A DNA stretch of 62,987 nucleotides, the filler included, from Folioceros fuciformis (lineage: Eukaryota), in NCBI GenBank assembly GCA_049999805.1. It is 4 parts of 4 records of this genome, joined end to end, with 100 filler letters (N's around TTAATTAATTAA, not from the genome) between each part and the next. Parts side by side here need not be neighbours in the genome. Positions count along the whole stretch, not along the records: positions 28,899 to 57,969 come from JBNGIO010006081.1; 3 more parts are not named here. One strand, given 5' to 3'. Of the stretch, positions 20,347 through 62,987 are shown one piece after another. The translations under genes and the position numbers were made by a program. How positions within the stretch are numbered: position 1 is the stretch's first letter; every line of letters starts with the position of its first letter. The notes beneath the pieces are model-generated. The model made no database searches, was not told the origin of the DNA, and saw only the letters and a list, made by a program, of their open reading frames with translations.

Positions 20347-20799
20347 AAGGTACCTATGGGCATTAAGAACTATGGTTTCTGATGAACAGATAAGTACACT
20401 TATACCTAAACTAAAAAAAAATGACTAGTGTAGTCTCAAAAACTTGATGAAACTGACCACTATATGCAGGAAGGGCGTGCTATAGAGATCAGCAAGGGAA
20501 AACCAACAACAAAACAAGGTGCAGGGCCCTGTTCATGCTGACCTCTTGAGCATGCCACTCAAGTCTACCGTGAACGGGCACAAAAACCTTAAAAATTAAA
20601 AACGTTTCATGTTCAAAAGACTTGCTCAAAGACAAACCCTAACTGTTGTGTCTTGTCCATGTGAAACGACAAATTAGGTACACCAATCACAAAGCTACAT
20701 GAAAGTTTCAGGAAGAGCTGCAAGGAAGAAAGCACCGCTTCAAATTTGGACAAGTATGGCTCCTGCTACTCTCGCTCCGCTCCTTTGCAGCGGAAGAAT

Positions 20800-33399: not shown

Positions 33400-35789
33400 G
33401 GCAGTAGAAACGGGCACTCGAGCGCGAGCCCCCGGGAACAGAGACCCTAGCTGAGGAATAAATATGGCAGCATCTCCGAGCAGGTGAATTCCACACGCCG
33501 GGCTCGGGCGTCCGGTCTGTCCAAGAGCTCGAATTCACCAGGGCGCAGCACCGCAATCCCCGGGCCAGGCAGCCCCGCAGCAGCAATAAATAAGCGCCAC
33601 ACGGTCCCGCAAACGCTCCGCTCGCGGCCTCAGCAGCCGTGCCATAAAAGCGCTCCACATAATTCTCCGACACGCCACGGATCCCCCTTCCAATTGCTCA
33701 TCCGAACGAGCCTGCTCCGGCACCCGAGGCGAATCTTGCTAACTCCTTGAGGCACAGCAGAAAAGAAAAATCCCAAGGCCGAGCCCCGCAACGCAGAGGC
33801 GTGCCGTGTCCGCCAGTAATCATGCAGTCTCCAGTCCAATGATCCAGGCTGAGCAACTGGCTCGCAGTGGAGTAGGATCTATTCAGCCACCAGTGACCAC
33901 CAAGACGATAACTGTCCAGACTAGTCCAGCTATGAGATCCTACGATCTGCAGCAAGGCCCGGGCCTGGTGCACCACCTGGCCGCAGCGCCAAGGCAATTG
34001 CGAAGCTGGCGCGAATGGAGCAGTTTCAGTGTGGCAGACATTAGGGTCCCGTGCATCACAAACATTTGATGCCGGAACGAGGCCTAAGCAGCAGCAGGGC
34101 GCGGCAGTACCCGAATACACTTCCCAATCCGGTCCCGGGCCTGCAGTGACCACATTTCCCCGCTGCGCCCACCTGCTGGACCTCGCCCTCACCGCAATTT
34201 CTTCTCGCTTGCGCGCGCTCGCAATGCGTGGCGTCCTGCTGGAATTTGGCAATGGGCTCGCGTACGCGTTGGGCGTTCGCGCTCGCTCTCCCTCTCGGCT
34301 TTTGTTTTCGGCTCTCGCTTGCTCTTCGTATGCCCGGCCTCGGCCCCGGCCCGCCTCGGCTGCCGGGTACAACCCCGGGTTACTCCACAACAGGTAAGCC
34401 GCCCGCTGCGGGTTACCTTCACCCCGGCTGCCCGAACGAGAACACCTTTCTTTGCCAACGTCAAAAACTCCTGGCACCCGTCAAATCTCACTCTAGAGCT
34501 CTAACAGTTACTTCAAGCACGCGGCTGTTAAGCATGATGAGCTTAGGATATCCGTACCTAGAGTGCGTTGCCCTAGCGAGCGATGCCCTTATTGTACCGA
34601 GCTCCCTAAGTTCCAATGAAGATCTTCAACTAGAATGAATTTCTGTTCGTTAAGTTCCCTTTCAGAGGGATTAAGTGACCATCGACTTCTAAAATGCAAG
34701 TTGATATTTATTATAAAAAAAAAAAATCATCCACCTCACAAGAAAGAAGACTAGCCTAGCCTAAGGCCACCATGTATAAAGCTAATGACGATACCTAGTA
34801 TATGATGATCTAGAAATTGAAAGGATCTATCTACTATCGGAATCATTCCCTCCTCTATGTTATGCTTATTGTGTCATTTTGTACATAATGTTTACTAGTA
34901 TCTTTGTAGAGCGATGGAGCCAAGTTATCAAAAACCATTGTTGTATGAGACATAAAGGGAGACCAACCAATTGCTTCCTTTCTTTTGTAAGCCTTGGCTT
35001 TGATACATGTCTTAAGAAACTTGGAGAATGTCTTACTCCATGGATCTAGAGACGAGAAGTGTTGTTGCCTCTTAAAGAACTCGAAGATCGCCTTACTTTC
35101 CAAAAGTAGAGATGAAAAGTGCCAATTGGCGTTGCCTTAGAATGAATCATCTTAAGCTCAATCACCTCTATAAATATTGTTTTCTTTCTTATAGAGTAAA
35201 TTGGTTTCTGTTTTCATTATTTTTTTCAATATAATCTCATGTTGAAATATTTATAAAGTACATATGAGAGTGTTTTATTTAAAGAGATGGGAAATCCTTT
35301 CTACCCCAAAGAGGAGGAGGAAAAGACTTGTAGAGGGCTGAAAGCCAAAAGGGGGCTAGCCCTAGCAAATATTGGTCCTATAAGTACCCACAATCTATAA
35401 GGTGTATTATTGGAGATAGTGAAGGGTCTAACTGGAACTAGAGCCAACGATGATGCTGCTAGACATGCACTTGAAACCATGTAGTAAATCACTTGCACTT
35501 GTAGCCAACCTATAAATTGCATTTGGTAGACCCCTATATAGAGTGATGAAAACTCATGGCCAAACGAAGCTTACCATTGCAGAAAAGGGGAAGAAACCTA
35601 TTCTTTTGACCTTTGGCTTGCCCCTTTGGTCTTTCTTTGACCTCATGTCTATTAGGCCCTCATGTTTATCAGGCTAAGGCCCTCATGTCTATCAAGCCAA
35701 GGCCTCCCAAAGGTGATAGACATTGGGGGTGATAGACAAAGCTTCATGTTACTTGATCAAATCTTTGGCTATACATTTGAAAATATAAA

Positions 35790-35936
35790 GGCCTATGATG
35801 TCCTAATAAGCTTGCATAACTTGATCATCAAAATTCTTCAAACTTGATAAGACTNNNNNNNNNNAAGCTTGCATAACTTGATCATCAAAATTCTTCAAAC
35901 TTGATAAGACTATGATGTCCTCACAAGCTTGCATAA
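35790..35936. repeat. Short ~60-bp tandem repeat that forms the insertion site of the Sola-like element (continues at 43997-44033)
   Basis: aagcttgcataacttgatcatcaaaattcttcaaacttgataagac copies; the last copy is split at ATAA by the transposon. Confidence 0.75.
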
Positions 35937-36481
35937 AACACGACAAAGCTGCAAGGGTCTGAATAATGAAGGACACTTGTACATGCCGTGAAGTCTAATT
36001 TCCTAGATCTTAACCCTTCCAAAATGAGCTACATATTATTATGTGCAAAGGGTCACCACCTTGTGCACACCAACCTTTCTCAATTTTCTACTATTAAATC
36101 ACGCATACACGCCGATTGATGGTCAGGGCGTCGGCCGATTGATGGTCAGGGCGTCGGCTGACCGGCACCCTTTACTCCTTAATTGTTCAACAGTTGCATC
36201 TATGCTGTGCCCAATCAGCACAAAAACACTTAAACTAATAAACTCTAATGACCCTCATTCGCAAACACGGAGTCATACACTATAGCAACTCTTGTATGCC
36301 TTTGTTGGTCGTTTGTGTCGAAGTTTTCAATCTCTTCCAACTCCTTATCCACAAAATCACCGTCTTCCTTGGCCTCATCGGGAGCTTGCAGTGCTAGCCA
36401 AACCACCTCCTGTGGCATCTAACCTCCTTCCCCAGATGCACTGATAGGGCATTGAGCGCTCCATCGGTTGAAAGGCACAAC

Positions 36482-37500
36482 TTAGGCTTTCAAGCTGTTC
36501 GTGTCGCTAATGCAAACTTCCCTCGCCCAAAATTGCGACGGGCTCTTGCGATGCACGTCGAACGTTAGTTCCTCTTCCACATCAGGAAGAACCTCGTGGC
36601 CATTGATTCGTTGAGGTATGTAAGCCGCGCATGAAAAGTCCGCCTCAACTGCGATGCAATTTCTCCCCATCAATAGCCCTACCTGTGTCATTGTCCCGCT
36701 GCCTGAGCAAGTATCCACGACCCAATCTCCTCCCTTGAAGAACGCAAGCACAAGTTTCATCATAAGACCTAGCAGTTGCTGATACGAGCATACCACACGT
36801 TTATCGTGCGACAAATAGATTTGCTTCTTCGCAACCAAGTCATGGACTATGACAGATCTCCCTTTGTTGAATGGTGGATGGGATACTTCGGGAAGCATGA
36901 ATACTCTATCTTTTCCACTTCCCTCTTTTGCACCCCAAGCCATTGTGATGTACTCCACAGTCTCGTATCCCCCCTTGTCATTGGACACGTTCGCCTTGTC
37001 CCAAAGAAAGGAGGTCATGCCTCCAGCCCGACACCATTTCCGAAGGGCATGTCTAACTGTTTCCGAAGGGCATGTCCTCCACTCCATGCATAACAACCAA
37101 CCGATATTTGTCACAGGTCATCTTCTCAACAAAACTTTCCAACACTGTGCTTATCATGGGCTCATTGAAACACTTGTCCATAGGGCCCATGTCATAGCCA
37201 CTTGCCACATCCATAAAGAGGAGGGAGTATTTTCCTGGTCGAAGAAATCCTTTCATTTCCATAACACTCCTGCTCACCACTTGGTACTGTACTTGAGTAT
37301 CTACTCTGGGGATTGCGAAGGTGAACATTCCTTCTTGCAAATCCTTGTCTGCAAGAACCCATTGCTCTTCCTCCAGACCCTTCTAGTTGTTAACTTTGAA
37401 AATGAATTGTTGGAAAGCTTTCTGCAGGACTGACAAGTTGTCCAAATCTTTAAGTTGCTGCACATTATCAACAAATGACAACATGAATGTAAAGCCCTTG
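36482..37500 (-). pseudogene. Beta-class N4-cytosine/N6-adenine DNA methyltransferase domain (N6_N4_Mtase-like), frameshifted
   Basis: YSLLFMDVASGYD (degenerate motif IV), FLWDK, VEYITMAW, then YQQLLGLMMKLVLAFFKGGDWVVDTCSGSGTMTQVGLLMGRNCIAVEAD (motifs X-I-II), in beta-class order. Confidence 0.8.
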
Positions 37501-37681
37501 CGCTAGTGCCCGGTTAGAAATTCGAAAGGACGGGCTAAGGTTGCCGACCAGCCGGCGCCCTTACCCCACTGCCCTGTCACACACAACCTGGGCATAGGGT
37601 GCACCCAATTGAGGGCGCTAGCTAGTCGGCGCCCTCAGCCCAGCCTTCCCTGCCCATTAGTCGAACCTGTGGTATTGATGA

Positions 37682-39008
37682 CTACAAGTGAGGAAAGGCA
37701 CTGGCTGGCTGCAACGTTATATCATCGCCCATACCCTTCAAGTCAATAATGCATGCCAACACCTTTTCTGTTGCCATGATCAATATTTGTTGTCCACATT
37801 GTCCTGGAGGTATGCCTTGGAAAGACTTCCAGGGCTTGGTCAGCATGTCCTTTGGCTTCACATATCCTGAGTCAACCAACTTCGAGTCATCCAAGGGCTT
37901 CTCTTTCCCTTCCCTTTTTGCTAGTGCCCATTGTGGTATGCTTCTTTTGCTCTGGCAATTCTCGTGCTTCCCACCTGGTGAATATTTTGTCTATGTTCTG
38001 CCAGACCTTGCCTTCCAAATTTGCTATGCAAATGATGTGTGTTCGATTATCCACCTTGTTCTATTTGTAGACATCATCCTGCTGAGCCTCATCATCCTCT
38101 ATCAAGCCCAATACCTTGTAAAGGTTGAACTTCCATGACATAGTCATCTGCACATCATCCTGCTTTGCTATAATAAGTTCATCCTAAAGATACCTAACTT
38201 GCTCAATGAATAACATTTTCCACCTTTTGTTGGACATCATGTTGTAATTTGTTGCTAGAACCCTCATCTCCTGTAAGGTTAAGCCACAGTACACATGCGC
38301 TTCAATGTACTGAAAGCGTTGTTTACTGGGTGACATATCAGCAAGATGCTTCATCGCGGCATATGTATGGTTCCCACCCAAAACGCCCATTGTGTACTTC
38401 TCCGCCCTGAACTTGTCCCAGTCCATCTCCAGCATGTCTGAGCACTCCTCAAGATCTATCATGCACAATAATGGGAGGACCCTCTCCTCAATCCTCCCCT
38501 TCGAAATAACCCTAGCCAGGTAGTTAGTCCGCGCTTCATCGACTTTCGAGATCTGTGCATCTGGTGTCAAGAATGATGTTGGCCGAAGGTTCTCAAGTGT
38601 CACCAGAACAGTCTCCTTCACTACCTTCTTGTAGTATGCGTATTCCCGAATCTTTGTTAGCGGGTCTTCATCCATAGCCGCCTCCACCAACCACTCCTCA
38701 TCCATTGCCACATGCACAATGGAAATATGGGTTATTTCTCCACTTCCAGCCTCAACGGCCCTACTCCTCTTTCTTTTCTGGCCGGATGATTGAGTGAAGC
38801 TCGCTGACCGACTGCCGCCTGTATCTCAGGCCACCTTCTTGCCTTTTTGTTTTCTCCCACGGATTTCCAGGCCTCGTGGTTCATCGTCAGGGCTCCCACC
38901 ACTGTCCATTGTTCTCTCAGGTTGGGAGGCTACCCTCTCCCATTCTTGTGACACTGATGACCAGACAACTCTACCGTTCCACTCCTGCGAACGCTGGTCG
39001 GCTGGCAC
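37682..39008 (-). pseudogene. ParB/Srx-like N-terminal domain and linker, upstream of and apparently fused to the MTase
   Basis: VTLENLRP..KVDEARTNYLARVI..MGVLGGNHTYAAMK..IEAHVYCGLTLQEMRVLATNYN; the same frame continues through premature stops at 38826 and 38184. Confidence 0.65.
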
Positions 39009-39251
39009 CCTCCCCCTTCACCTTCAGCCTAGCAATTGATAAACCATTCTAGGTTTGGCGAAGGCAAGATGGCCACGGCCCAGCCATCGACATGGGCGCC
39101 GGTCGGCCAATGCCCTTGGGTGGCCTCTGCTCGTATTAGACTGTTGCAACCTCTAGAGACACTCCAGGCTCGAGGTAGTTCGGGAACATTACCTCCTTAT
39201 CAGGCACATCTCTCTTTGCATTCAAGCCCCCATCTTCAGAGTCTGATTGCC

Positions 39252-40195
39252 CTAAGAGGTTAGGGATCGTCCCAATTCACTGTCCTCCCCACTGCCATTC
39301 GGCATCACCATTGCCTCTACTCCTTGATGGGTTCTGGGAATAGCCATAGCTCGGCAATGAGCCTGCACTAAGTGGGTGATCTCCATATAAAGGCATTGTA
39401 TAAATGATTTCGCATATACCTCATCATGCAGCACCCACCAACGTAGCAGTCAGCAATCAATTTTGCTCCGATGCCAGCCCAACATGAGGTAGGGAGTTCT
39501 TACCGGTCGTTCTCGCCGACATTCCAATAACATCTGAACAAGACGCTGAGGCTCACACTTCTTTATCGTCATGGCGTTAAACAATAGGTGATATAGTCTG
39601 TAAGCATCAATAAAGTTGGAAATCTCGTCAAACGTCTGTTGCTGGGTAACGCAAAGAAGTAGCGCCTCCACTCCAATGTTCCCCATCTGTAATGTTGCCC
39701 ATATCACCCACCCTGCTCTTCTCCTTTGATTCGGATAGGCGCCCCTATACCCCATTATAAACAATTTGAAGAGAGGAGTCCAAATCCAGTAGTCCTCCTC
39801 TGGCTCCTCCTCCTGCACAAGGATCCAATTCCTCTCTATAACATCCTCCACTACTACCTTCGCCAATAATCGCTTTATCTTCATAGTCTCCTCATAATTG
39901 AAGGGCGATTGCATAAGAGGTGGCTCGCATTGGCGTTGGGAAGGCACAGTGCCTTCCATGTTCTCCCCTCCACCACTTGTAGTGCTCACCCTCCCACATT
40001 GCAAGCTATGAGAGCACGATGCTCCCCTTGTTGGGGATGCCATTGCAACGGGCATAGGATCCACTACTCGCGGTGGCAACCTTTAGGTGTAGGCTTCTTC
40101 TTCCCCACACGTTGCTTCTTCACAGGAGCGCACTCCCCTTCCTGGTCCCCAACATCCCCACCTGCCCTTGCCTTCGCCCTGCTTTTGGTTGCCAT
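39252..40195 (-). pseudogene. Unknown cargo ORF-A of the transposon (one frameshift, one stop)
   Basis: MATKSRAKARAG..KKQRVGKKK basic start, then a ~200-aa helical Trp-rich region that reads through the stop at 39450. Confidence 0.5.
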
Positions 40196-40859
40196 GTCCT
40201 CGAATGCGCAAAAGAGAACATATTCAATTCAGGCTTGCAGCTCCAATTTGCTTTTGATTACTACCACACGCCAACGCTCCGCTACAAGCTATGCGTAGTT
40301 GCGCCCAAATATGAACACCAAGGTTCCGTATACGACAACTAGTTGAAAGGCCTCTACCTGCACATTTGTAGCCTTTTATTTTGTCGTCTCAAATACGCTT
40401 AGTGTGTAGCAACCCTAGATCAAAATAGCAATGTCTTCAGGCCATATACATATTGGTATATATTTTACAGTACATCTAGTTATTGAAAAGGAGACAATCA
40501 TTACTAATTGGTTGATGGATTCGAAACCCGACAAATGATGGCGTTCCGCTACACCGTGAATCTCCACAATAGATACGGGTGCTGGCGTTCTTAATGACGC
40601 CGGCTCTGCTTAATGCGTACCGAAGGATACAATGTCGTTGTGACGTTGCTGTGTGCCCGCCAATGTTGTTGATGATCTTCAATCTGGTGCCACAAGACTT
40701 ATTGTCAAATGCTTGCAGATCCTTTCACCTGCATCATATTACTAGAGATCAGGCACCAATATGACAGCGTACCACACAATATTGACCGCGCTGCACAATG
40801 TGGAGGTCAACAATGTTAGCAATGCTTTTCGCTACCCCCGCTTTGCTATTGAAATTCTT

Positions 40860-43110
40860 CTAGCCTGTTGTGCTCTTCACCTCTGTAATCGCTGTAGTGG
40901 TTAGGTATAGGACGATTTGTCTACTTTCATTGTACAAGACCCAATGGGTAGATTGAAACGGAGGCGCCTCATATTGAACAAGCAGACATCAGGAGCATAT
41001 GGAAGTGTTGATAGGGCCGACTGCATTCCTCACAGATGGAAGGTACAAGGGCAGCACTACTTGCAACCACCACTAGCTTGTCCGTCGCTTGAAGGGCATC
41101 GCTGCATTACTGATCGTTGCTCCCGCCTTTCGCAGGGGGGAGGGGAGGAGGAAGAGGCCGATCAGGCCGCCCACACAGAGGGTGGGCGCCGGCTAGCCGG
41201 CGCCCTCCCTACGTGCGGGCTTTTGTGCTTATGGTAGACCCGCTCAACCCATTCCATGCGAAGCATAGCTAGGTTTTGTGGTGACACATGGCCCGTCTAA
41301 GAGTCCCCGAAAGTAGGGTTTAAAGGTCGCGAAATCCTACTCAAGTGTCGTTGCGGTGAGTTTGGCACTTGACAAAATGAATCTAGCAAATCAGCATGCT
41401 CAGTTCACTTGATATCCGAGCTCGTGCATGCAGAGAAGTACCATACTACTTTAGACACCCACCAAGATCGGTTATGCACAAAGCGTGCAAAGATGTCCAA
41501 GCATTAGAGCAAAAGCTATGTGTACTCACGGAAGTACCTGATGCTAGCAATCGATGGGATGGATCAAAAGAAAACAAAGATTCTGCACTTCGTACAATGG
41601 GCCAAGAACCTATTTGAGGAAAGCCGAGTGGCAATGCATGTAGTGGGGTGTATGGTGCACACATGTGTACAATGTGAAGGCATAGCTGCATCTGGTAAAC
41701 TTGCGGAACAACGCAAACTTGACTATATCAATGATCCAAAATGTCATTCTCACATATGTTGGCATATTGCCAAAGGTTCTATACTTACAATTGGACAACA
41801 CATTCAGAGAGAATAAGAACCAACTGCTCTTCGCATACCTAAATATGCTCATGGATATGGGAATGTTTGAGAAAATCAAGGTTGGTTTTTTGCTTATGGG
41901 CCACACACATGACAAAATAGACCAGATGTTTTCATGTTTCTCAAAGAGCTTGTAGCACAAAGAAGTGCACACAGTGCCTTCTTTGGCAAATACTTTGCAA
42001 AACGCATACACGCCTACTCTAGAGGTGAAGGTCCTCACAGAAGTCCCAAATTTCATATCCCTTGTGTGGCCAGTTCAAAGGGGAGCAAGACGTAGCTCGT
42101 ATAAAACGGCAGTGCGACGTTTGAATAATTTCTCGTTCTAACATAAATTCAAAATAACCTGCAAGTAGAGAGGGGACGAGGGCTCATTATAGTGATACGA
42201 AGTAAGCAGTATTCAACGTCTCCCACTTGGGAGACAAAAGGAGGCTTGGAGTTTTTGAAATTTGTCGCGATGGCCACTATCTTTTCTACACCACTCCTCT
42301 CTCTATGAGCAAGGGACAAGAAAGGAATTGATACTAATATGCAACTAGTAGCCGGGGTTACCCACTTGAAGGAGGGCCTTGCCATGTTACTTTCCTGCAT
42401 TTCGATGGAGGACAAGCTGTGGTAGGATGAGTTTTGAGAAACCCAACATGCAGTAGCAGAAAATGGTAGAGAACAAAATAGAGCTCCCTCTACAGGTTCC
42501 GTGAAAATGGTTTTCGAGGGATGCACCCAAGGAGAGTGCTAAACCATTGCAAGTTCCTAATGAAACGTTTCTTGATGAAGCAGTGTTGAGGGAACTCCCA
42601 TAGAGGGACATGTATATAGGCAACTACTGGTGGCCCATACAACAACAACAGCAGATGGATCCCATGAACGGTGATGTGTCTAAGATAAGGGAAGGAATGT
42701 TCATTGCTACCCCATGCTGCACAGATACAGACAATCGGCCTTCAAGAATAGGAAAAGTGGAGGAAGTGCGAATGGAAGGTGCCAGGCCAACCTTGCTTGT
42801 CCATTGGTACCGAAATGCACATACTGATGCATATGAAGGGAACTATGTAGAAGAATTCATTGTCAGAAACAATAGACCGCAGGACGTCGACAAGGCAAGC
42901 TAGCAAGGGCGGAAGGCCAAACATCGCAAAAATGTTCAAGAGGTGTTTATGGATGAGACTGTAATCCTCTATTACGGTTTCAACCTCACAACAAGGAAGC
43001 ATCTTTATGCCGCTGATAAAAAGGGGATTCAAAACAAACTCCATTAGTTGCGTGGAATGATAGAACCCCCAAGTGACCCTCAGATTATAGTCAGTGATGA
43101 TGAGTCACAG
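40860..43110 (+). pseudogene. Sola-like (DUF7869-type) DDD transposase with a C-terminal BAH/SH3-like domain, decayed
   Basis: LMLAIDGMDQKKT, LYLQLDNTFRENKNQLLFAY, KIKVGFLLMGHTHDKIDQMFS; tail GMFIA..RIGKVEEV..LLVHWYR. The 5' start is uncertain. Confidence 0.8.
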
Positions 43111-44459
43111 TAGATGCTTGTTGGCAGAGGCCTCCACCTGCCCCGTCTGTAGGTTTCCTAGAAGCAAATGCGTGTGAAATAGGGTGCCATGCCATTTTGG
43201 GATGAACCTTTGGCATGCACCTTCACCTTGGGACAGCAAGTGTCCCTGACAGTGAGAGGCTAGCGTTGCTATCCATCGGGGAGCAAGGGTTGGAATTGAC
43301 TAAACCCATTAGCGTTCATAAGATAGATGACGGTAGATAGCCACAATGTTAGGAGTGTAGTGAAACAAGGAATGTGTTCCATTACCGTTTGTATTGTCTT
43401 CATGGCTATAATGACAGAATTTGTCTGCATTATGTACAGCTGTGTACGAAGTTCCGATAGCAGTGGGTTGTAGCACATGATCCTAACACTGCCCACATTT
43501 GAATATGTAGACCTGCCTTCATCATGTAAGTGGGGCGATGACATGTGCCCGCCGGCCGATACCTTTCGATGCACAACTTCCATGTTGAAGATCGGTTTCT
43601 ATATTCCAAGGTGGGAAGATCATGTGTCCATACGAAAGTGGTATGGCCAATGAGAACAGGGAGCATGTGTTCCCATTGTCGGACCTAGACTTTGGTTGTC
43701 CAACAAGGATTCGCTTAATATCGTAAAACAATAAAGAAGACATCGGCATGGACGGTGTATGTTATGGGTTTAGATCTGCATATTGTGGGCGTGTTACCCG
43801 AGTGTCACACCATTACTGAGATAGACTAACCCCTATTATAGCACTTGCGTACAGCCGACTGTCCATGGTTGAACAACAATTTTGCAGCATATGGGCTTAA
43901 AAGCGCGGATTGCAACGCATGTTTGGGACCAATCCGAGTTTTTTGAGGCATTCACCCTCTTGAGCTTCATTTAGCCCTTTGCAACTTTGGCGTGTTATAA
44001 CTTGATCATCAAAATTCTTCAAACTTGATAAGAAAGTTGAAGAAGCAGCAATTGTCATGGTGTGCAACTTGACCTTTTACACAGTGTAGGAAAAGAAAAA
44101 AATAAATGTTGTATCATGATCCCTAACGTGAGCCAAGTCTTAGTTTAAGGCTACATATATAAATTTGTGAATAAACCTAGGAGGTCCCACTAGAACCCCA
44201 AAACCTACAATCCCTATGGGGAAGTGATATCTCCCCCCACATATTAAAAAGAGGGTATGATGTTTGAGGGGACCAAACCTTATATTTGGCAAACTTAACC
44301 CTAATAAGCCCCAAATGGAAGAGTTCTTAGGAGAAGAGTCAAAGGTTGGTTTTACCTTTCCCTTGGCTTTGAGGATATGAGTGTCGGTAAGTGTAAATGA
44401 GAAAATGCATTTCGAGAACTGATAGAGACAGTAGAAAACATCAACTTAAAATGCGTCAT

Positions 44460-45750
44460 GGCAAAGAGGGCACTCTCTAATGGATTCCCATGTTTGGTGT
44501 CGCTATCAAGTTGATAATAGAGATTCATTCCATGGTTAGATTATGTTGGAAGTAAAACTTGGATGAAGAACCATAAAATGAGTAGACAAATGGGATAAGG
44601 CCAATGAGTTGCCCTCACATTCTCGAGTTGTGAGAAAGTGACAACTTGGAAAAGTGTGTTAAAAGCATTCTCAATGTCCATCTACAAAGCCACCCAATAT
44701 GATTGTGACTTGAGGATAGTCTAAACACTAAAGATGGCAAACTCATAGCCGCATAAAAATGACAATCCCAAATTGGCGAGAAGAAAGATGTGCTTGAAAT
44801 TGCTTCCAAAGTTGCATTGCAATAATGCAACTAACAAGGCGCAAAACTACCTTCCCAATAGGAGTGGGATGGAATCCCAAAGTGGGCTTCTCCAAAGCAA
44901 GTAGCCTGCTTATCTCTAACACCTGGGACATCTAGTGAGGGGCGTCTAGACCTCTTTGCAAGAATTACCACCAAAGTAAAAAACATTAGAAAATCCAATT
45001 GAGAGATCTTGTATGGAGAAATAATCTCAAAGATGGTTCCAAAGCATCCCTAACATCCCTCTGAACAAAAGTAGTGGGGCGATAAAGTCGCAGGACGATG
45101 GAGAGGGCGCAACCAAAGACCAACTCGTTCAAACCAAAAGGCTCCTTCTTTTCATAAAGTCTAAAATGNNNNNNNNNNAACTCGTTCAAACCAAAAGGCT
45201 CCTTCTTTTCATAAAGTCTAAAATGTTGTGTCGAATGATGTTATGGGATTCAGGTAGAGAACACCTGCTGTCCCTATGGTGATCTTAGAAGGTGTGGCCA
45301 CAAGTGTTGAGCACAAAGCTTTAACAACTTGGGTGTACTCAACATCCCAACCTGGTGAGAGATATCTCTTAAGACTTGTGTTAAAAGGGTCTAGGCAAAG
45401 CTTATCCATCTTGGTAAACTCAAGCTAGAATTTTCTTGCAAATAAATCTTCCTCCTAAGGCCTACTAATCTCCTGATTGAAAACGTCAAACGAGAAGCAA
45501 TCTCTTGATATTTTAAAAGAATTGCCCCCTGGGGACACCACATACAATCAAAGGGAGGAAGAGAAACAAAATATGAGCATCCTCCTCCTTCGGGTTTTTG
45601 TGCTAGGTGCTCCAATGATAAGTAGGAGGGGAACCATGCGTCGTTATCAATATGCCTTGGGAGACATTGGAAGAGGTGAGGGCACAAAAAGCGAGCATAA
45701 AACAAGGCCATTAAGTGCTTTAATTACAGAAGCTTAAGCACTTGAATTCA
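44460..45750 (-). mobile_element. Relic of a CRE-like non-LTR retrotransposon reverse transcriptase
   Basis: LLALEKPTLGFHPTPIGKVVLRLVS..AHLSSRQFGI and MDIENAFNT resemble the L.K..GG.RPIA.GE..RRL..QFG..D..NAFN motifs. Confidence 0.6.
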
Positions 45751-46976
45751 AGGTAGTATTAGACCCACAACCAAGCCTTTGGTGGCAGCTCAAGCGGAGC
45801 CACCGAAAGAGGAGTAGGGGTAAGAGCGACATCAAAGAAAGGGATAAGAATCCTAGAGTTGCGCCTTTGTCAGGCAACAAGAGATCCAAAGAACAGGTCC
45901 ATGACATCCAAGAGGAAAGGAGAAGAGGGAAAAAAGAAAAAATGATGTAGACTTGTTCTATATATGGGTGTATCCATCCACCTAGCTAGAGAAGCTTAGC
46001 TTAGCTTAGCTTGGGTGCGAAGGAAGGTTACGAGGATACTAAAAAAAGACAAGGGAAACCATGCATCTATCTTATGTATGTACCTTGTTTTAAGCGAACC
46101 GAGCCAACGAAGGGCACCAGGCCGGGGAAGGTTAGACTAGGTTGGGTTATGCTAGGCGAGGGGAGGTGAGAGTAAAGTGAGCATCTGTCTACATGGAAGG
46201 AGAAGGGAACGGGCTTTTTTGGACTGGACAGTCAGATTCAATCACCTTGCCAAGGTTTGCTGCCACTTTCTCCGACCTTGACCCAGAACAGATTAGCCCA
46301 GCCGAACTCAGCCGAGCCGAGCCGAGCCCAGAGCGCGCAGCTTCCTGCATTCCAGGGCCTCTTCTCCTGCTCCAATTGTAGTCTACCGCTCGGCACGTGC
46401 AGTACCACAGGTCCTGGCCCTGGAAGGCATCTCGCACCCCGATGCGTCTCCTGGTGTATTCACAAGGTGCCACATTCCACCGCGGCTATGGCGTCCGCTC
46501 CTGCTAGTGACCTACCGAGCTGGAGAAGCAAGCAGGCATCGTCGAGCGGACGGGGATCGGGGTGCAATCGCGATCCGGTTCCGGACGAATGTCGGATGGG
46601 CTTCCGCTGGTAGCCCGTACTGCCCACTCCAGCTGCCCTTGAACCGCACGGCCTGCGCCGCGTCCATGCTTGAGCCGAACCATACTGAGCCGGTGAAGGG
46701 CGCGAGCTACTTGTAGGGGCATTGTATCTCTTGGTCAGCCGTCCCAGGAGGAAGACGTGGGCGGAGGATGTGACTGGAGGGGGCGAACGGCGGGAATTGG
46801 ACGTGGGAGGAATGACTGCGGGNNNNNNNNNNNNNNNNNNNNNNNNNNNNNNNNNNNNNNNNNNNNNNNNNNNNNNNNNNNNNNNNNNNNNNNNNNNNNN
46901 NNNNNNNNNNNNNNNNNNNNNNGTCGATACGTAAGGGACAGGGGCATTGTTGCTGCGTGAGCTGCGGGAGGGCAAG

Positions 46977-49900
46977 ATGAAGCTCCCAGCTTGTTCCATT
47001 TGTCAGATGACATTCAATGAGGATGATAGGGTGCCCATGATGCTGCAGTGCGGGCACAGCTTCTGCAAGGAGTGTCTGGCGCACATGTTTTCTGTGAGTA
47101 CAGATCACACCTTGTTGTGCCCCAGGTGCCGGCAGCCGTCCAAGGTGGGCAACAGTGTGGAGGCGTTGCGGAAGAACTTTGGGATGATGTCGCTTATTCG
47201 GAGGGCGTCGGCGGATGGGCCTGCGGACGACGACTCGGATGAGGACGACGAGCTGCTCGACTGTACCTCTAATCCTTACTCGGACCGGTCGCACGGGAAC
47301 ACCCCGCAGGCCAGCCCGGGCTGGCCTCCCGCCTGCGGGGGCATAATCTTGGATCTGTCATCCCATTCTCTGCGCCTTGTACGCCTCATTGGGGCTGGCC
47401 CTCGGTCGGGCCAGGATGTCTGGGCCGGCCTTATTTGTGGACCGGGTGGCTGTAGGCACAAGGTGGCTGTTAAAAGGCTGGATATTCCGGATGGAATGAG
47501 TTTCGACTGGATCCAGGCCAGGGTTGACCACCTTCGACGATGTGCCATGTGGTGTCAGAACGTCTGCACCGTCTATGGGGTGTGTGAAAAAGATCACAAG
47601 CTTTGCATAGTCATGGACAAGTATCTTGGTTCAGTGCAGAGTGTCATGGCCCAGAATGAGGGCCGGCTCACGCTTGAGCAGATCCTTAGGTACTGTTCTG
47701 CTGCCCTCAATCTGGTTTCTCTGTGGATGTTGGACACGCCAGTGCACCTCAACTCTAACCTGCATGGACATGTTTCATCCAAGGCATCATGCAGCGTTGG
47801 ATGACTCTTTGTGAAAGCGTGAAGAGTGTCTGAGTTTGGATGTTGAGTTGCTGGTAGAAGTTATTGTGAGCTTCGTGACGCTACCTGGATAGCAATTTTT
47901 TTTTTGGGCATTCCTTCCGCTGTCACTGCATGATGGGGGTGTTTTCTCCGTTGAGAAGTCAAGTTTGGGTTTGCTTGTCGCAAGGTCTATGGACGAGGAG
48001 ACACCTGTGCTCGTCACTGGACCTGCTCTGTCTTTGCTCAAGCCTTTCACTTAGCAGACAAAACCATTGAGTGATGTCTTCGGTCCCCTTCCGCACATGC
48101 AAGTACAGGCTCTGTCTTGTGTGGTCGTCTTTTAGTGAACGAGAACCAAAAAATGATGTCATGTCATGTCCAGACCTCTTGAAAGACTTGCTTGACCAGC
48201 GTTGCTCTGGGTACATTTTTAGAGGACTGTATTTTACTGTTTTAATCCGAATCTGATTGAACAAACTTTTTGTTCAGAGCTAGGCTTGAGCCCTGTCTCA
48301 AGCTTTTAATTCATGTGCAGATACGGAGCGGACATTTCTCGTGGAGTTGCTGAACTACACGCTGCAGGGGTTGTCTGCATGAATTTGAAACCTTCAAACT
48401 TCTTGCTTGATGCAAAAGGTCGAGCAGTTGTGTCGGACTTCGGCCTTTTGGAGATACTCAAGAAACCTCAGTGCAAAAAATCTCGTACTGCCAGCGAAGA
48501 TGGTGCAGGTCAGATGCACTCTTGTATTGATTGTACTTTGCTAAATCCCAATTACATGGCGCCTGAAGCCTGGGAGCCTCTTCGGAAGTCATCGTTGAAT
48601 ATTTTTTGGGAGGATCATGTCGGGGTTTCTGTGGAATCGGATGCGTGGAGTTTTGGGTGTACCCTGGTGGAGATGTGTACTGGTGCAATTCCGTAAGTGT
48701 ACTTCACCCAGTTATCTAGGATTCTAGGTATGCTGTTCAATACGAAAATTATTGGGGGTGTTGTTTTCACATCTTGGATTGCATGCGCCACAGATGGGCT
48801 GGTTCAACCATGGAAGAAATATATCGATCTGTGGTGAAAACTCGTAGGCAGCCACCACAGTACGTTGGGGTTGTTGGAGGAGGTATACCCAGGGAAGTTT
48901 GGAAGATGATCGGCGAGTGTCTACAGTTCAAGCCATCAAGAAGACCATCATTTCATGCAATGCTCGCGATTTTCTTGAGGCATCTCAGGGAGATGCCTCT
49001 CAGCCCCCCTCCAAGTCCAGACAAGTGAGTTCCAATCTTTATTCAGCACACAGGTCTTCAGGTTTACCCTAAGTACTCAAAGATGGTGTCTTGGCGACTT
49101 ATTGGCCTGTTTCCTTGACTAACTGATGTTCACTCATTACTGCAAGGTATTGGGATGTGAACAGCGATCCCGCAAAGGATTCAGATGTGACCAGTACAGA
49201 GCCATCACCATCATCAACACTTGAGTTTGGGCAAATTACACAAAGCACTCTCCATCGCCTTGTTGCAGAAGGTGACATAGAGGGTGTTAGGTGAGCCAGT
49301 CCTTTGTTTGCTGATCGATGCTGGGACCAAGCACAGGCAATTTATGAGCGTGTGCATGGTATTTGATCGATTCTTCAACTTGTCTTGCTGTAGAGAGCTT
49401 TTCATCAGAGCTGCAGCTGGGAAGGCTGGAGTATCTGTGGGTACCCTTTTGGAGAGCAGAAATAACGAGGGTCAAACAGCCTTACATATTGCTGCCATGA
49501 GAGGTTATTCAGACATGGTTGAGCTCATGCTCGAATATCCTGAGGCTGATGTGGAGGTCCTAGACAAAGATGGGGACACCCCTATTGTCTTCGCTGTGGC
49601 GTCTGGAACTCCTGAATGCCTGAAGGCTTTGATTAAGAAAAGGGCGAATGTAAACGCTAGGCTGAAAGAAGGGATGGGTCCAGCAGTAGCACACGTATGT
49701 GCTTTCCATGGACAACCAGATTGTATGAGGGTATGTGGACTCTTGTCTTAAGCAACACTTCTTTGGGCCTGTATCCTGTCATGCCTGAGCCCCGTCTCAT
49801 CTTTTATTTGTGGGGTATATTGCATTTCTCAGGAGCTGCTTCTAGCTGGAGCTGATCCCAACATAGTTGATGATGAGGGTGAGACTGTCCTTCACAGAGC

Positions 49901-52900
49901 TGTATCAAAACGGCATATCGAGTGTGCCATGGTTATACTTGAAATTGGAGGCTGTAAATCTATGGGTGTCTTAAATGCCAAACAGCTCACGTATGTTTTC
50001 CATTCGGAAATTGCTTTGTTTGGCTTGAAGTAGGTTCTGTCCAGCTGTCCCTTTGTGAATATGCTTGTCTGTTCCTTTGCAGACCTCTCCATTTATGTGT
50101 AGCCACAGCAACCGTAGCGGTAGTCAAAAAGTGGTTGGAGCTGGCATCTCCAGAGGAGATAACTGCTGCTATTGATGTTCCAAGCTCTGTTGGAACTGCT
50201 CTATGTATGGCTGCAGCTCTGAAGAAGGCGCACGAGGAAGGTACAGATTCTGCACCTTGTGTAGTAAATGAACAGTGGACTGTGGCTCAAGATTCAGGAT
50301 ATGACTGAATGGTTGAGCGGGGTATGCAGAACTTGTGTGATCAATATGTCTACCCTAAATTAGCCACGGCACAGATGAGCTGACCCCTTCCTACAAGACT
50401 TATCTCTCGGACATGCGCTAGGCAGACTGGACATCCTAAATATATGGATGCTGCTGCAGAAGCCAGAACCTTGGTGAAGTTATTGCTGGAAGCAGGAGCA
50501 ACTCCAACAGCGACGGACACTCAGCGGGGACAAACTGCTCTACATGCAGCTGCAATTGCGAATGACCTTCAGATGGTGACGGTGAGGGCATTCAAGTCTC
50601 ATCCACTGTGAAACAGTTTTGGTGGATGTCTGTCAATGGACCTTAATATCAACAACTTGGACTGTTTCCTCTAAGTGAGATTTGCACTGGCTCATGTGTT
50701 TCAGATAATTCTGGATGCGGGTGTTGATGTCGATGTTCGTGACTTACACACCACTACTCCACTTCATGTAGCCTTGGCAAGAGGTTCAAGGGCGTGTGTT
50801 GGCCTTCTGTTGGAAAGAGGTGCCAACTGCAACCTGCAGGTATTTGTCTTAGGGAATTCCAATCCTTGGACCTCTTGGTATTGGTTTCTATGGGCAATGT
50901 GTGGATGACCGTAGAGTATGCACCCATGTGGGAACCTTTTCATAGTCCATCTGCCAATTGTCTTACGTGTCAAGAGCCAGTCCAAGGTGGAGGTCTTCAT
51001 TTGTCAGGTTCCCTCTCTCTGTATGGTTGTTGTTTGATCTCATAATTCACTAGTTAGAGAGCTTATCTGTTGACGGCGCTCTGTATGTTGAGTGCTATTG
51101 GACAGCAATAATGTCTTCAGTATGGATTTGATACCAATGTGGGTCTTACGTGATGTGGATGATGGAGTGGGTAATGCTTGTGATTCGACTTTTTCGCTTG
51201 CATGTGTCAAGGTTTCCATGTACTGATCTGCCTTGTTATGTCTCAGGATGACGAGGGTGACAACGCTTTCCATATCGCAGCAGATATGGCAAAAATGGTT
51301 AGGGAGAATCTGGACTGGATTGTCACCATGTTAAAGCGACCAGATGCGGCAATTGATGTGAAAAATCACAGGTCTGTTAACAATTCTATGAATGGTTTTT
51401 TTAACATTGGACATTTCCGTCAACGTACACAGAAATGAGCTGTAGCCCATGTTCTTTTACATTTTCAGCGGTAGTTCAGGCTTTCGATTATGTCACAGAT
51501 TGTGGAGTAATACTTGATTTCTTTGAAACAGTGGCAAAACGCTGAGGGATCTCTTGGAATCCCTTCCAAGGGAATGGATCTCGGAGGACCTTCTCGATGC
51601 ATTGATTGAAAAGGGCATTCATCTCTCACCTACAAAGTTTGTCACCTCTCCTGAATGTGTTCCGTTGCCAGCTGTTGAGTGAGAGGGATGTCTCCTGTGT
51701 GCTCAACGCTTATCCTGCAACGCCACTGTTGTGCTACTGCGTCCAGCACCTCAGAACTTTGTCTTGTTCATGCAGCTATGAACCAGGAGACTGGATTAAA
51801 TTCAAGAGAACAGTAAAATTTCCAAAGTATGGTTGGCAAGGAGCAAAGCCAAAAAGTGTGGGATTCGTGCACAGTATTGTGGACAAAAGCAACTTATTGA
51901 TATCCTTCTGTTCAGGAGAGGCCCGTGTTGCAGCCGATGAGATTGTGAAGGTTGTCCCACTCGACAGAGGCCAGCATGTCAGGTTGAAAGCAGATGTGAA
52001 GGAACCAAAGTAAGTGAGGTGTTATGGTATGTGAATGCTGCCAGCCTTGTTGCTATGGAAATCAGAGAAATTGCAAACATCACACACTTCGTGAATTTAT
52101 GGGTCCATTGCAGATATGGCTGGCGTGGGCAGTCACGTGATAGTATTGGAACAGTATTGTGTATTGATGATGATGGCATATTGAGGGTTGGATTTCCTGG
52201 AGCGTCGAGGGGCTGGAAGGCAGATCCTGCTGAAATGGAGCGCGTTGAGGAGTTCAAGGTTGGAGACTGGGTGCGCATTCGACCTTCGTTGACAGCAGCA
52301 AAACACGGCTTGGGGCCTGTGACTCCTGGTAGTATTGGAGTTGTGTACAGCATCAGACCTGACAATAGTTTGCTGCTTGACTTGAGCTATTTGCATGGCC
52401 CATGGCACTGTGAGCCTGAGGAGGTGGAACATGTGGATCCTTTCAAAGTAAGCTATTTCTGATGTTTGGTTCCGTTTAGTTCCAGTCAGTACTCATCGGA
52501 CATACCTTGTTTCGCAGGGTCCGAGCATTATGCTGAAGTTCTCCTGAAAAAGTCTATTCCGTTGTAACTCTTTTTGCCGTCCATGCAGGTTGGAGATCGG
52601 GTCTGTGTACGAAGATCTGTAGCTGAACCACGATATGCCTGGGGTGGTGAAACACATCACAGCGTTGGCAAGATAAGCGAGGTGAGCAGCGATGGATTGC
52701 TCATGATTGACATTACAGGTCGACCGATTCTTTGGCAGGCGGATCCTGCTGACATGGAAAAGGTCGAAGACTTCAAGGTAAAAGTCTTCTGCACCCTTCC
52801 TTTCTGCAAGGTGTTCTACTCTGGCCGTTTATGTGGCCTCCCTTTTTGAAGGTAGATTGTATCTATCCAGGTAGGTGATTGGGTACGAGTGAAGGCCTCA

Positions 52901-54536
52901 GTTTCATCACCGAAGTACGGATGGGAAGATGTGACGAGGGGCAGCACTGGTGTTGTTCATTTCTTGGACGAGGATGGGGACATTGGGGTGGGTTTTTGCT
53001 TCCGGAGCAAGCCTTTTTCTTGCTCTATTACCGATGTGGAGATGGTTAGCCCGTTTGAAGTGGGACAGGAAATTCACATAGCACCCTCTGTGTCGGAGCC
53101 AAGACTGGGATGGTCTTCAGAAACATCAGCCACCACAGGGAAGATTGCCAGGATTGACATGGATGGTACACTGAACGTAAGTCTTCCTCTTTGCCCATTG
53201 TAGTACAAGTGTTTTGGTGCTAGCACGTCATGAATGCTATAGCGGTTACGAGGTACATGCTTCAAACAGCATATGTTATAAACTGCTGCAGGTAAGAGTT
53301 TCTGGGAGGAGTACGATGTGGAGAGTAGCTCCTGGAGATGCTGAACGGCTGTCAGGCTTTGACGTTGGAGACTGGGTCCGTCTAAAAGTTCCACTTGTCA
53401 TCAGACCAAGCTATGATTGGCATGGGTCTGGGAAAGACAGCGTAGCTGTTGTGCACAGCATATCAGATGCAGGTTATCTTGAACTGGCAGGTTGCTTCAG
53501 AACTGGGCGCTGGCTGACGCACTACTCCGAGGTTGAGAAGGCCCCTGCATTGAAGGTTGCTCAACATGTTTGCATACGTCCAGCAGGTGCAGAACCAAGA
53601 TGGGGCTGGAGAGGTGCTTCTATCAACTCGAAAGGTGTCGTCGTGGGTGTCCATGCTGACGGAGAGGTACGAGTAGCATTTCCAGGGCTTGCAGCTCCGT
53701 GGAAAGCAGACCCTGCGGATCTACAAAGAGAGGAGATGTTTGATGTTGGTGACTGGGTCAAAGTGAAGGAACCGGTGGGTGAACCTAGAAATGGGTGGAC
53801 GGGTGCTAGGGCAGGGAGCGTCGGAGTAGTTCAGGGCATCGCGTATGAAAGTGAGGGTGGACTTCAGGGAACAGCCATAATAGTGGGGTTCTGCGGAGAA
53901 CTAGATAGGTGGTTTGCTCTTCCCTCTGAGTTGGAAAGGATAGAGCGTATCCGTGTTGGGCAGCAGGTGCGAGTCAGGGAATCTGTCAAGCAGCCACGAT
54001 TTGGCTGGTCAGGCCATAGCCATGCAAGCCTCGGCACTGTTGCTTCTGTGGATGCAGATGGCAGGCTTAGAATCCATTCGTCCGTCGGATCTCAAAAGAC
54101 CTGGATGTTAGACCCAGCTGAGGTGGAGGTAGTTGACGAGCAACCAATCTGCATCGGGGACTGGGTGAAGGTGCGCTCCTCGGTACCTACTCCTGCTCAT
54201 CAATGGGGTGAAGTGACACACAAGAGCATTGGGGTGGTGCACCGAATTGATGACGACGGTGATCTTTGGGTTGCCTTCTGCTTCCTGGAGAGGCTCTGGG
54301 TTTGTAAGCCAGCAGAGATGGAGCGCTTGGATGCGTTTCACATCGGCGATCCAGTACGGGTCAAACGTTCAGTTGTTACTCCACGGTGGGGTTGGGGAAT
54401 CGAGACCTATGCGAGTAGAGGGGTGGTGTCAGGGGTGGACGCTGATGGCAAGTTGCGCATTAAATTTGCCCGTCGTGAAGGTAGGTTGTGGATAGGAGAT
54501 CCTGCAGATGTAGAATTAGATTTGGACACATTGTAG
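46977..54536 (+). CDS. KEG: E3 ubiquitin ligase KEEP ON GOING (RING, kinase, ankyrin repeats, HERC2-like repeats), multi-exon
   Basis: MKLPACSICQ..PMMLQCGHSFCKECL..CPRC; VVCMNLKPSN..VSDFG..YMAPEAWEP; GQTALHIAA ankyrins; many VGDWVR..PRWGW repeats ending WIGDPADVELDLDTL*. Confidence 0.97.
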
Positions 54537-62767: not shown

Positions 62768-62987
62768 ATATCTTAAAGATAGCCCGCAATCGGTGATGGC
62801 AACATCATTACTCCCCTCAAAGTAATTCAGTAAATAAAATAAGTCTCGAACTACACTTTAGTGTAGCAAGGGCTACGTCGTAGACGACCATTTGCCCCAC
62901 ATTGGCCATAGATTGTCAATCCCTGAGCTTCGACCTAAACCGTAGCTGCTTGCTTCGACCTAAAACGTAGCTGCTTGTTGAGCATGA

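Follow-up and report, generated by a model that had tools for sequence, protein, structure and literature searches.

A broken copy of a repeated gene joining a ParB-type module to a bacterial-style DNA methyltransferase in the Folioceros fuciformis genome

The window, a stretch of 62,987 nucleotides (nt) joined from four parts of the Folioceros fuciformis assembly GCA_049999805.1, carries at 36482-38909 on the minus strand a broken copy of a gene that couples a ParB-type module to a bacterial-style DNA methyltransferase and belongs to a repeated family. The explanation that best accounts for the whole, and that we hold to be likely, is a dead copy of a repeated ParB-methyltransferase gene, with carriage by a transposon and descent from phage-type proteins as its inferred parts.

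Four stop-to-stop open reading frame (ORF) pieces lie between 36482 and 38909 on this strand. A probable start codon (ATG, 38909-38907) opens a leader rich in lysine and arginine (38826-38909), which ends in an in-frame TGA (38828-38826); the alignment to the family profile starts at 38900, and relatives carry similar leaders. The ORF at 38184-38825 contains VLGGNHTYAAMK (38384-38349) and within it a GGNHTYAA box (38378-38355). This box belongs to a domain resembling the ParB/sulfiredoxin (Srx) fold that, together with a helical region resembling a helix-turn-helix (HTH), occupies 37932-38825 according to the profile (positions 26-326), BLASTP and tblastn. A short stop-to-stop ORF spans 37682-37990, and a middle-region piece in another frame lies at 37736-37858 (profile 344-379, weak; phmmer; tblastn). 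The N-terminal half of the methyltransferase (37053-37382) is marked by BLASTP to the relative P0004 and by a weak profile match (468-537), and contains LFMDVASG, the counterpart of motif IV, at 37220-37197. The C-terminal half (36482-37117; Pfam PF01555, the NCBIfam CcrM model and profile 541-699) ends with a TAA at 36484-36482 and contains motif I, GDWVVDTCSGSGT, at 36730-36692 and GRNCIAVEAD at 36667-36638. When the reading frames are followed, the three motifs on which the initial annotation was built are all found on the minus strand, close to where it had placed them, and motif IV precedes motif I in the order of the beta permutation that it had recognized.

The two parts had been proposed to have formed one protein, and this is supported by six long relatives that carry both in the same order and by the colinearity of the pieces with the family profile. 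Five of these relatives (P0006, P0007, P0011, P0025, and P0038) were retrieved with the C-terminal ORF and the sixth, P0045, with P0006; all have an N-terminal domain with a GGxH box, present as two tandem copies in P0011. The N-terminal ORF of the window gave BLASTP E values of 1e-12 with P0006 and 4e-8 with P0007, and in a small local database it matched every one of the six in that domain, with E values of 1e-20 to 1.6e-5. Searches of the window with the relatives (tblastn) returned colinear pieces confined to 36545-38789 and none elsewhere in the window. A profile of 729 positions, built from 12 full-length relatives, aligned with the locus as follows: 26-326 with 38900-37932 (81.6 bits), 344-379 with 37858-37736 (weak, independent E value of 0.1), 468-537 with 37274-37077 (weak, independent E value of 0.045), and 541-699 with 37060-36569 (79.1 bits). 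Positions 380-467 are the sole span between 26 and 699 that lacks a counterpart in the window. The middle piece was also matched by phmmer to residues 296-349 of P0007 and to P0020 (E value of 0.002), and by tblastn with residues 307-349 of P0007. An intact gene would thus encode a single protein of approximately 650 to 800 residues, composed of the lysine- and arginine-rich leader, a ParB/sulfiredoxin-fold domain with an HTH-like part, a helical middle, and a C-terminal PF01555 methyltransferase.

The stretch is a multi-copy, diverged repeat in its own genome. Contigs of two DNA runs, X1 and X2, which come from the same sample under the same species label and probably from the source itself, were placed on 35500-43500 at a likeness of at least 80%, giving 235 pieces for X1 and 211 for X2; individual contig differences were listed for the best-supported 40 of 2568. 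By likeness, 59 of the X1 pieces are at least 99% alike, 25 fall at 95-99%, 43 at 90-95%, and 108 below 90%, which leaves 176 of 235 under 99%. One copy has an internal deletion of 1015 bp (37100 to 38116), and transitions make up 1192 of the 1859 difference places in X1. Over 35767-38970 and 41374-43500 the summed contig depth, which should not be read as a copy number, exceeds that of the part lying between them. An approximate left edge of the repeated unit can be placed at 35866-35937 from the rise in depth at 35767 and from loose contig ends at 35809-35937, and a direct core of 38 nt (35874-35911) recurs at 43998-44035. In contigs of a further run from the same sample, X3, 893 of 1166 difference places on 35500-43500 are C>T or G>A, which suggests a bisulfite- or enzyme-converted library; that these contigs are still at least 80% alike on the repeat hints that many cytosines there were protected. 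A run of the same species label that was presumed to be RNA placed no contig, which has no bearing on expression.

Head-to-head with the methyltransferase gene, and approximately 2.4 to 2.5 kb from it, lies a decayed DUF7869 gene on the plus strand (41387-42100), with a Pfam match to PF25273 at 41686-41955 (E value of 3.8e-30). Its decay is seen in an overlapping frame and in a TAG directly after 41955, and the DUF7869 region is itself repeated in the genome. The gene has D...D...H..D-type motifs that we take to be DDE-transposase-like. Its nearest ESM Atlas clusters are large clusters of short eukaryotic DUF7869 fragments, and a full-text literature search found no mention of DUF7869. Upstream of the methyltransferase gene, an ORF of 210 amino acids on the minus strand (39450-40082) has no recognizable family; it gave no match in Pfam or NCBIfam and no similarity to any of 57 family proteins, their N-terminal extensions included. 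Diverged paralogous contigs cover this ORF and the region between the methyltransferase and DUF7869 genes. The gene family is probably linked to a transposon, and the gene would be, or would have been, cargo of a DNA transposon.

The window copy is, as judged from its sequence, a pseudogene with no function left, because it combines four in-frame stops, three frame changes, an insertion, and the loss of motif IV and of the PYQKP motif. The stops are a TGA at 38828-38826 and TAG codons at 38186-38184, 38063-38061, and 37385-37383, the last of which directly precedes the motif-IV piece. Single tblastn high-scoring segment pairs of P0007 and P0011 cross both N-terminal TAG codons and reach 37944. 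The three frame changes were read from tblastn along the gene, and the last of them lies at 37058-37070. Alignment with P0004 ends at residue 97 in the motif-IV ORF and resumes at approximately residue 100 in the following ORF; the window has 13 nt where P0004 has two residues, 7 nt too many. In paralogous contigs 5 nt at 37061 and 2 nt at 37072 are missing, although the two absences are not established for the same contig. An imperfect tandem duplication of 17 nt (37076-37060 and 37053-37037) is also present. The PYQKP motif, whose Q, K, and P are invariant in the family, reads SYQQL in the window (36787-36773), and motif IV reads DVASG, compared with DLPRG in the nearest relatives and D[FILV]PYG elsewhere.

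An intron near 37500-37690 had been suggested as a possibility. At least 37511-37626 is instead a DNA-level insertion or replacement, because another genomic DNA copy has 29 other letters there, as seen in one contig each of runs X1 and X2. The insert is a GC-rich palindrome of 116 nt (z score of -2.4 for hairpin folding), and its core, GGGCGCCGGCTAGCCGGCGCCC, recurs at 41184-41205, where chance would predict no match. The frames are broken by in-frame stops and by the 7-nt excess and are not joined by splicing; two donor/acceptor pairs across 37734-37458, checked by eye and not by a systematic search, led to a stop or to the wrong frame. As a separate observation, the small palindromic GC-rich element with this core is present both at 37511-37626 and at 41169-41220, the second near the DUF7869 gene, and looks like a miniature hairpin-forming repeat.

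The C-terminal domain is predicted to be a beta-class N6/N4 amino-methyltransferase, the fold being seen in a model of the relative P0006 and not in the window copy. The C-terminal ORF matched PF01555 (N6_N4_Mtase) with an E value of 4.2e-5 and 24.0 bits, below the gathering score of 26.7 bits, and the NCBIfam CcrM model with an E value of 3.9e-7 over 148 residues. All 10 relatives of a first set passed the PF01555 threshold (27.3-65.7 bits), while in a second set of 10, three passed, two fell below it, and five gave no match. The relatives of the methyltransferase are few and distant, because a HMMER search of 1.84 billion representative proteins retrieved 44 matches at an E value of at most 1e-3, six of them at most 1e-10, the best being 35% identical (E value of 2.8e-14). 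An earlier word-based homologue search with the C-terminal ORF retrieved no match. By BLASTP, P0004 was matched by the C-terminal ORF (9e-21) and by the motif-IV ORF (3e-7, with DVASG opposite DLPRG), and in the small local database the motif-IV ORF matched P0002, P0001, and P0004 with E values of 1e-9 to 5e-6.

A profile of 10 full-length relatives searched against the PDB had M1.HpyAVI (named DpnA by its depositors) as its best match, with an E value of 1.8e-12, followed by M.BceJIV, M.MboIIA, CcrM, and M.RsrI; the N4-cytosine (N4C) enzymes came lower, rotifer N4CMT at 5e-6 and M.PvuII at 8e-3. The AlphaFold model of full-length P0006 has a mean predicted local distance difference test score (pLDDT) of 56.8, with a methyltransferase core mostly at 75-88. 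Foldseek placed CcrM, M.BceJIV, and M1.HpyAVI first for this model (E value of 1.5e-10, target-normalized template modeling (TM) scores of 0.51-0.77) and N4CMT (1e-8) and METTL3 (1e-6) further down. In both searches N4CMT scored below the N6-adenine (N6A) enzymes. The matches to PF01555 and CcrM and the fold of P0006 agree with the earlier assignment of the C-terminal part to the beta-class amino-methyltransferases, distinct from the plant 5-methylcytosine (5mC) enzymes.

Motif IV stands before motif I in all relatives that carry both. The glycine-rich motif I, which binds S-adenosylmethionine (SAM), reads VVDTCSGSGT in the window, and 38 of the first 45 proteins show the pattern D-x-x-[SA]G[ST]G[ST]. 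In beta-class enzymes motif IV is (D/N/S)PP(Y/F/W). In the present family it differs by clade, reading DVAS in the window, DLPR in the nearest relatives, D[FILV]PY/H in the Chara-type clade and others, and D[KM]Px[DE]W in the holothurian clade. The window clade, with DLPRG in the nearest relatives and DVASG here, lacks the aromatic residue of motif IV and may be non-catalytic. As the initial annotation had noted, the motif is degenerate in the window copy, so that neither activity nor base specificity can be read from it.

The N-terminal domain is predicted to have a ParB/Srx fold, on the evidence of the homologous domain of P0006, which shares 31% identity with the window ORF across 95 residues and on which the fold test was run. 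Folded with a seven-row alignment, the P0006 domain reached a pLDDT of 77.3, and the 31 PDB matches listed by Foldseek were, without exception, ParB, Noc, KorB, PadC, sulfiredoxin, SbnI, or ParB-like proteins. Noc, ParB, and KorB came first (E values of 6e-5 to 4e-3, probability of 1.0), with alignments of approximately 190 to 220 columns that span the N-terminal domain and the HTH; sulfiredoxin, SbnI, and PadC followed the ParB proteins, in a probability range of 0.93-1.0. Of the "ParB-like nuclease fold" named at the outset, the fold is retained in the ParB/Srx form that the P0006 model shows, and the nuclease is not, its neighbors being the nucleoside triphosphate-binding ParB, Noc, and KorB together with sulfiredoxin, which are nucleotide-binding clamps and ATP-binding enzymes. 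"Nuclease" is only an old family name.

Members of the family are found in distant eukaryotes. A profile search with the N-terminal domain retrieved 15 proteins of 388 to 2000 residues, of which eight are hypothetical proteins from different scaffolds of Chara braunii, four of these bearing the title "DNA methylase N-4/N-6 domain-containing," and three come from two sea cucumbers, Holothuria leucospilota and Apostichopus japonicus. P0049, P0052, and P0053 are among the Chara proteins, and P0055 is from Apostichopus japonicus. The Chara-type motif IV is DFPYG, with degenerate variants such as FDFPCRY and FDFLYG. P0020 corresponds to P0007 with an internal deletion, and P0011 is doubled in tandem; by their sequences, truncated or degenerate members such as P0020, P0046, and P0011 have the appearance of mobile copies in decay. 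A tree of the C-terminal half of the methyltransferase (33 rows), from which the phage outgroup was dropped for poor coverage, separated 4 rows as a holothurian clade and 10 rows as a Chara-type clade, besides further groups; in this tree the window has a long branch of 1.38 that leaves an unresolved fork and is assigned to no clade. Full-text literature searches turned up no account of a eukaryotic ParB-fold/beta-class methyltransferase family, although supplementary tables (Iyer et al. 2016, ParB survey) may list members, and this phage-like architecture appears to be undescribed in eukaryotes.

As an observation apart, the holothurian clade (P0055-P0057, P0038, and P0054) has both motif IV (D[KM]Px[DE]W) and Box II (GGCHN) altered in proteins that are full length and conserved among species. 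To judge from these sequences, the holothurian members might be domesticated or non-catalytic.

Several observations weigh against the account favored here, some of them on the protein and others, given in the next paragraph, on its carriage and descent. A match to ParBc, which we take to be the Pfam name of the ParB N-terminal domain, is absent for the window ORF and for seven aligned domains even at E values up to 10; the best PDB match of the seven-domain profile is sulfiredoxin with an E value of 2.2, and a DUF6551 match (E value of 0.003) is sub-threshold and present in one of the seven members. The TM-scores of the P0006 domain to ParB are modest (0.35-0.46), and in the full-length P0006 model the ParB part has a pLDDT below 50. 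The arginine of Box II is absent from the window (GGNHTYAAMK) and from the holothurian clade (GGCHN[FYL]), and in Chara-type members (GGGHSREAR) it stands one place off. A preprint that surveys ParB proteins describes DUF6551 as a partner of the ParB fold in phage proteins and reports that mutation of the Box II, or P-motif, arginine abolished nucleotide binding (bioRxiv 10.1101/2025.10.10.680097). Because this arginine is absent, nucleotide binding by the window clade appears doubtful. In the methyltransferase part, (D/S)PPY is absent in its canonical form from every clade, and the catalytic activity of family members is presumed from sequence. The N-terminal ORF of the window has, in addition, no meaningful sequence match in Pfam, NCBIfam, or the PDB, which would suit a reading in which the ParB-like and methyltransferase parts are unrelated neighboring ORFs and the ParB resemblance is due to chance. 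This reading was rejected and retains next to no probability, given that six independent long proteins hold both parts in the same order and that the fold search with the homologous domain returned ParB/Srx-fold proteins only. It is also highly improbable that the locus is a live host gene whose pieces are the exons of a functional ParB-methyltransferase writing N4-methylcytosine (4mC) or N6-methyladenine (6mA). The pieces are indeed colinear and cover nearly the whole family profile, host genes in the surrounding genome are rich in introns, and eukaryotic N4C writers of bacterial origin are on record in the reports cited below. Against such a gene, homology passes through the in-frame stops at 38184 and 38061 within single tblastn segment pairs, and motif IV is cut off from motif I by 7 surplus nt at two residues of the relative, in letters that paralogous copies lack. 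The supposed intron, moreover, is missing from another DNA copy, the conserved catalytic motifs are mutated, and the two donor/acceptor pairs checked by hand failed, in what was no systematic search.

The carriage of the gene by a transposon has its own difficulties. The summed contig depth falls to approximately 20-27 between the two genes, compared with 50-114, possibly marking separate adjacent repeats; searches for terminal inverted repeats and a target-site duplication bracketing the unit gave none, no contig bridging the methyltransferase and DUF7869 genes was seen in another copy, and none of the long relatives has a transposase domain. The ends of the unit may have been lost by decay. 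The low depth between the genes, the missing repeats and duplication, and the relatives without transposase would all fit a segmental duplication, or a repeated gene family of the host or of a satellite-like kind, that only adjoins an unrelated DUF7869 remnant and is not transposon cargo; other unrelated elements in the window (copia at 17.9-20.4 kb and a Harbinger-type DDE gene at 61.5-62.4 kb) make chance adjacency plausible. We consider this unlikely. The distribution over a charophyte alga, sea cucumbers, and the Folioceros genome is patchy and the copies are many, diverged, truncated, and internally deleted, which is the usual picture of a mobile element and not of a host family, and the diverged paralogous contigs extend over the region between the genes. 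On descent, alignment of the family with a phage ParB-methyltransferase by hhalign (probability of 91.5, E value of 8e-7, with DFPYG over DPPWG) covers the methyltransferase part alone, and tblastn against 50,697 phage records matched 301 of them at 24-29% identity over residues ~534-788 of P0006 only, again the methyltransferase. Since only the methyltransferase part aligns with phage proteins, a phage origin of the fusion as a whole is conjectural. That a phage, a bacterium, or a giant virus left the locus as an integrated fragment, through recent transfer or contamination, is very unlikely. Such an origin would suit the enrichment of ParB-N6_N4 methyltransferase fusions in phages and prophages described in the preprint cited above, an IMG/VR ORF with the same domain order as the eukaryotic family (L003:9221-10663), and the phage methylases that form the nearest ESM Atlas clusters of the relative P0001. 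The phage similarity is, however, limited as just described, and two IMG/VR scans gave no close match (none with alignment A3, and four distant methyltransferase-only loci with P0007). A prokaryote scan with one genome per species gave 25 loci, 24 of which match 46-59 residues around motif I only and one of which, L024, is longer (174 residues at 29% identity). A JGI metagenome scan with the Chara-type alignment confirmed none of 556 pattern matches. The stretch is, furthermore, multi-copy and old in its own genome, stands among plant-type host genes and a copia element, and has a GC content like that of its surroundings.

The reading of a dead, transposon-linked copy allows a mechanism to be proposed for the intact D[FILV]PYG members. 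In these, the ParB/HTH module would hold the enzyme on DNA, possibly under a nucleotide switch, and the methyltransferase would move a methyl group from SAM to an exocyclic amino group; by analogy, adenine N6 is a more likely target than cytosine N4. The mark would benefit the element, which could use it to regulate its own transposition or to escape silencing by the host. In its most far-reaching form, which is possible but doubtful, the proposal is an undescribed class of eukaryotic DNA transposons. These would combine a DUF7869 DDE-type transposase with a phage-derived ParB-HTH-methyltransferase that writes 6mA or 4mC on the DNA of the element, to gate transposition or escape 5mC-based silencing, and horizontal transfer would have carried them between echinoderms and streptophyte algae or plants.

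Prokaryote-type amino-methyltransferases are rare in eukaryotic nuclear genomes, and the confirmed cases, N4CMT and DN4MT1, changed views on eukaryotic DNA marks. The present family is a different class of enzyme, still joined to ParB as in phages and multi-copy in a charophyte alga, sea cucumbers, and a plant-like genome. If its intact members are active, they would offer a ready source of element-targeted 6mA or 4mC and a test case for mobile DNA that manipulates host epigenetics; if the DLPRG and DxPxxW types are inactive, the ParB/methyltransferase scaffold would have been reused for DNA binding only.

The remainder of the window has a eukaryotic, plant-like content of host genes and transposons. 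A host gene at 46935-54536 on the plus strand encodes a RING finger, a piece of a protein kinase, and many SH3 repeats of the MIB/HERC2 type, and presumably resembles the plant E3 ligase KEG. A copia-type retrotransposon fragment with GAG-pre-integrase and Pol beta-barrel parts lies at 17917-20424 on the minus strand, and a transposase gene of the PIF/Harbinger type (DDE_Tnp_4, "Plant transposon protein" domain) lies within 61525-62857, also on the minus strand, at approximately 61.5-62.4 kb. At 35808-35911 and 45122-45225, exact duplications of 47 nt flank gaps of 10 N; these look like artifacts of assembly or gap closing rather than biology.

Among known methyltransferases, the solved N6A enzymes CcrM (6pbd), M.BceJIV (8urk), M1.HpyAVI (5hek/5hfj), M.MboIIA (1g60), and M.RsrI (1eg2) share with the family the fold and the order of motifs. 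They are its best structural and profile matches, yet the identity is 16-20%, and the matched chains, of at most 366 residues, leave no room for an N-terminal module such as that of the family. Their canonical motif IV is DPPY/DPPH-like, unlike the D[FILV]PYG, DLPRG, or D[KM]PxxW of the family.

The closest counterparts in architecture are the phage fusions of ParB to an N6_N4 methyltransferase, described as enriched in phages and prophages (bioRxiv 10.1101/2025.10.10.680097), from which the family would descend. As far as that account goes, the likeness extends to the ParB-fold domain, the helical or HTH part, the beta-class methyltransferase, and the position of motif IV before motif I. Unlike these fusions, the eukaryotic proteins have 650 to 1000 residues with an additional helical middle region and a lysine- and arginine-rich leader, a ParB part that cannot be aligned to the phage protein, a Box II of GGGHSREA, GGCHN, or GGNHTY in place of the GERRxR given for the phage fusions, and a motif IV without the first proline, and they form a dispersed repeat in eukaryotic genomes.

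Rotifer N4CMT (8s9m; PMC8885841) and Marchantia MpDN4MT1a/b (bioRxiv 10.1101/2021.02.12.428880) likewise place a permuted, bacterial-type N6_N4 domain in a eukaryote. These are reported as active enzymes encoded by single or tandem host genes, with a TSPPY-type motif IV, and the rotifer paper, which attributes a chromodomain to N4CMT, states that N4CMT has no eukaryotic homologues (PMC8885841). The family considered here is repeated and decaying and carries a ParB module and a D-type or degenerate motif IV; no chromodomain was found in the 20 relatives scanned. The suggestion of a eukaryotic 4mC writer is not borne out for this locus, a dead copy of a repeated and probably transposon-linked gene. 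Nor does the family belong with DN4MT1, compared here by its description, and N4CMT, since its motif IV is D[FILV]PYG and not TSPPY, and N6A enzymes score better.

The concept of a prokaryote-derived DNA methyltransferase that travels with a eukaryotic mobile element is shared, according to the published accounts, with the Dam-type domains carried by DIRS and long terminal repeat retrotransposons (bioRxiv 10.64898/2026.05.21.726589) and with mariner elements of giant viruses that carry methyltransferases (PMC3627910). Those enzymes differ in being NPP-type Dam or of another class, borne by retrotransposons or virus-borne mariners, and described without a ParB module. ParB-related associations of another kind are given by Iyer et al. 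2016, who list, among other eukaryotic clades, one of Dam type that bears a ParB-type HTH and one in haptophytes that stems from ParB-terminase loci.

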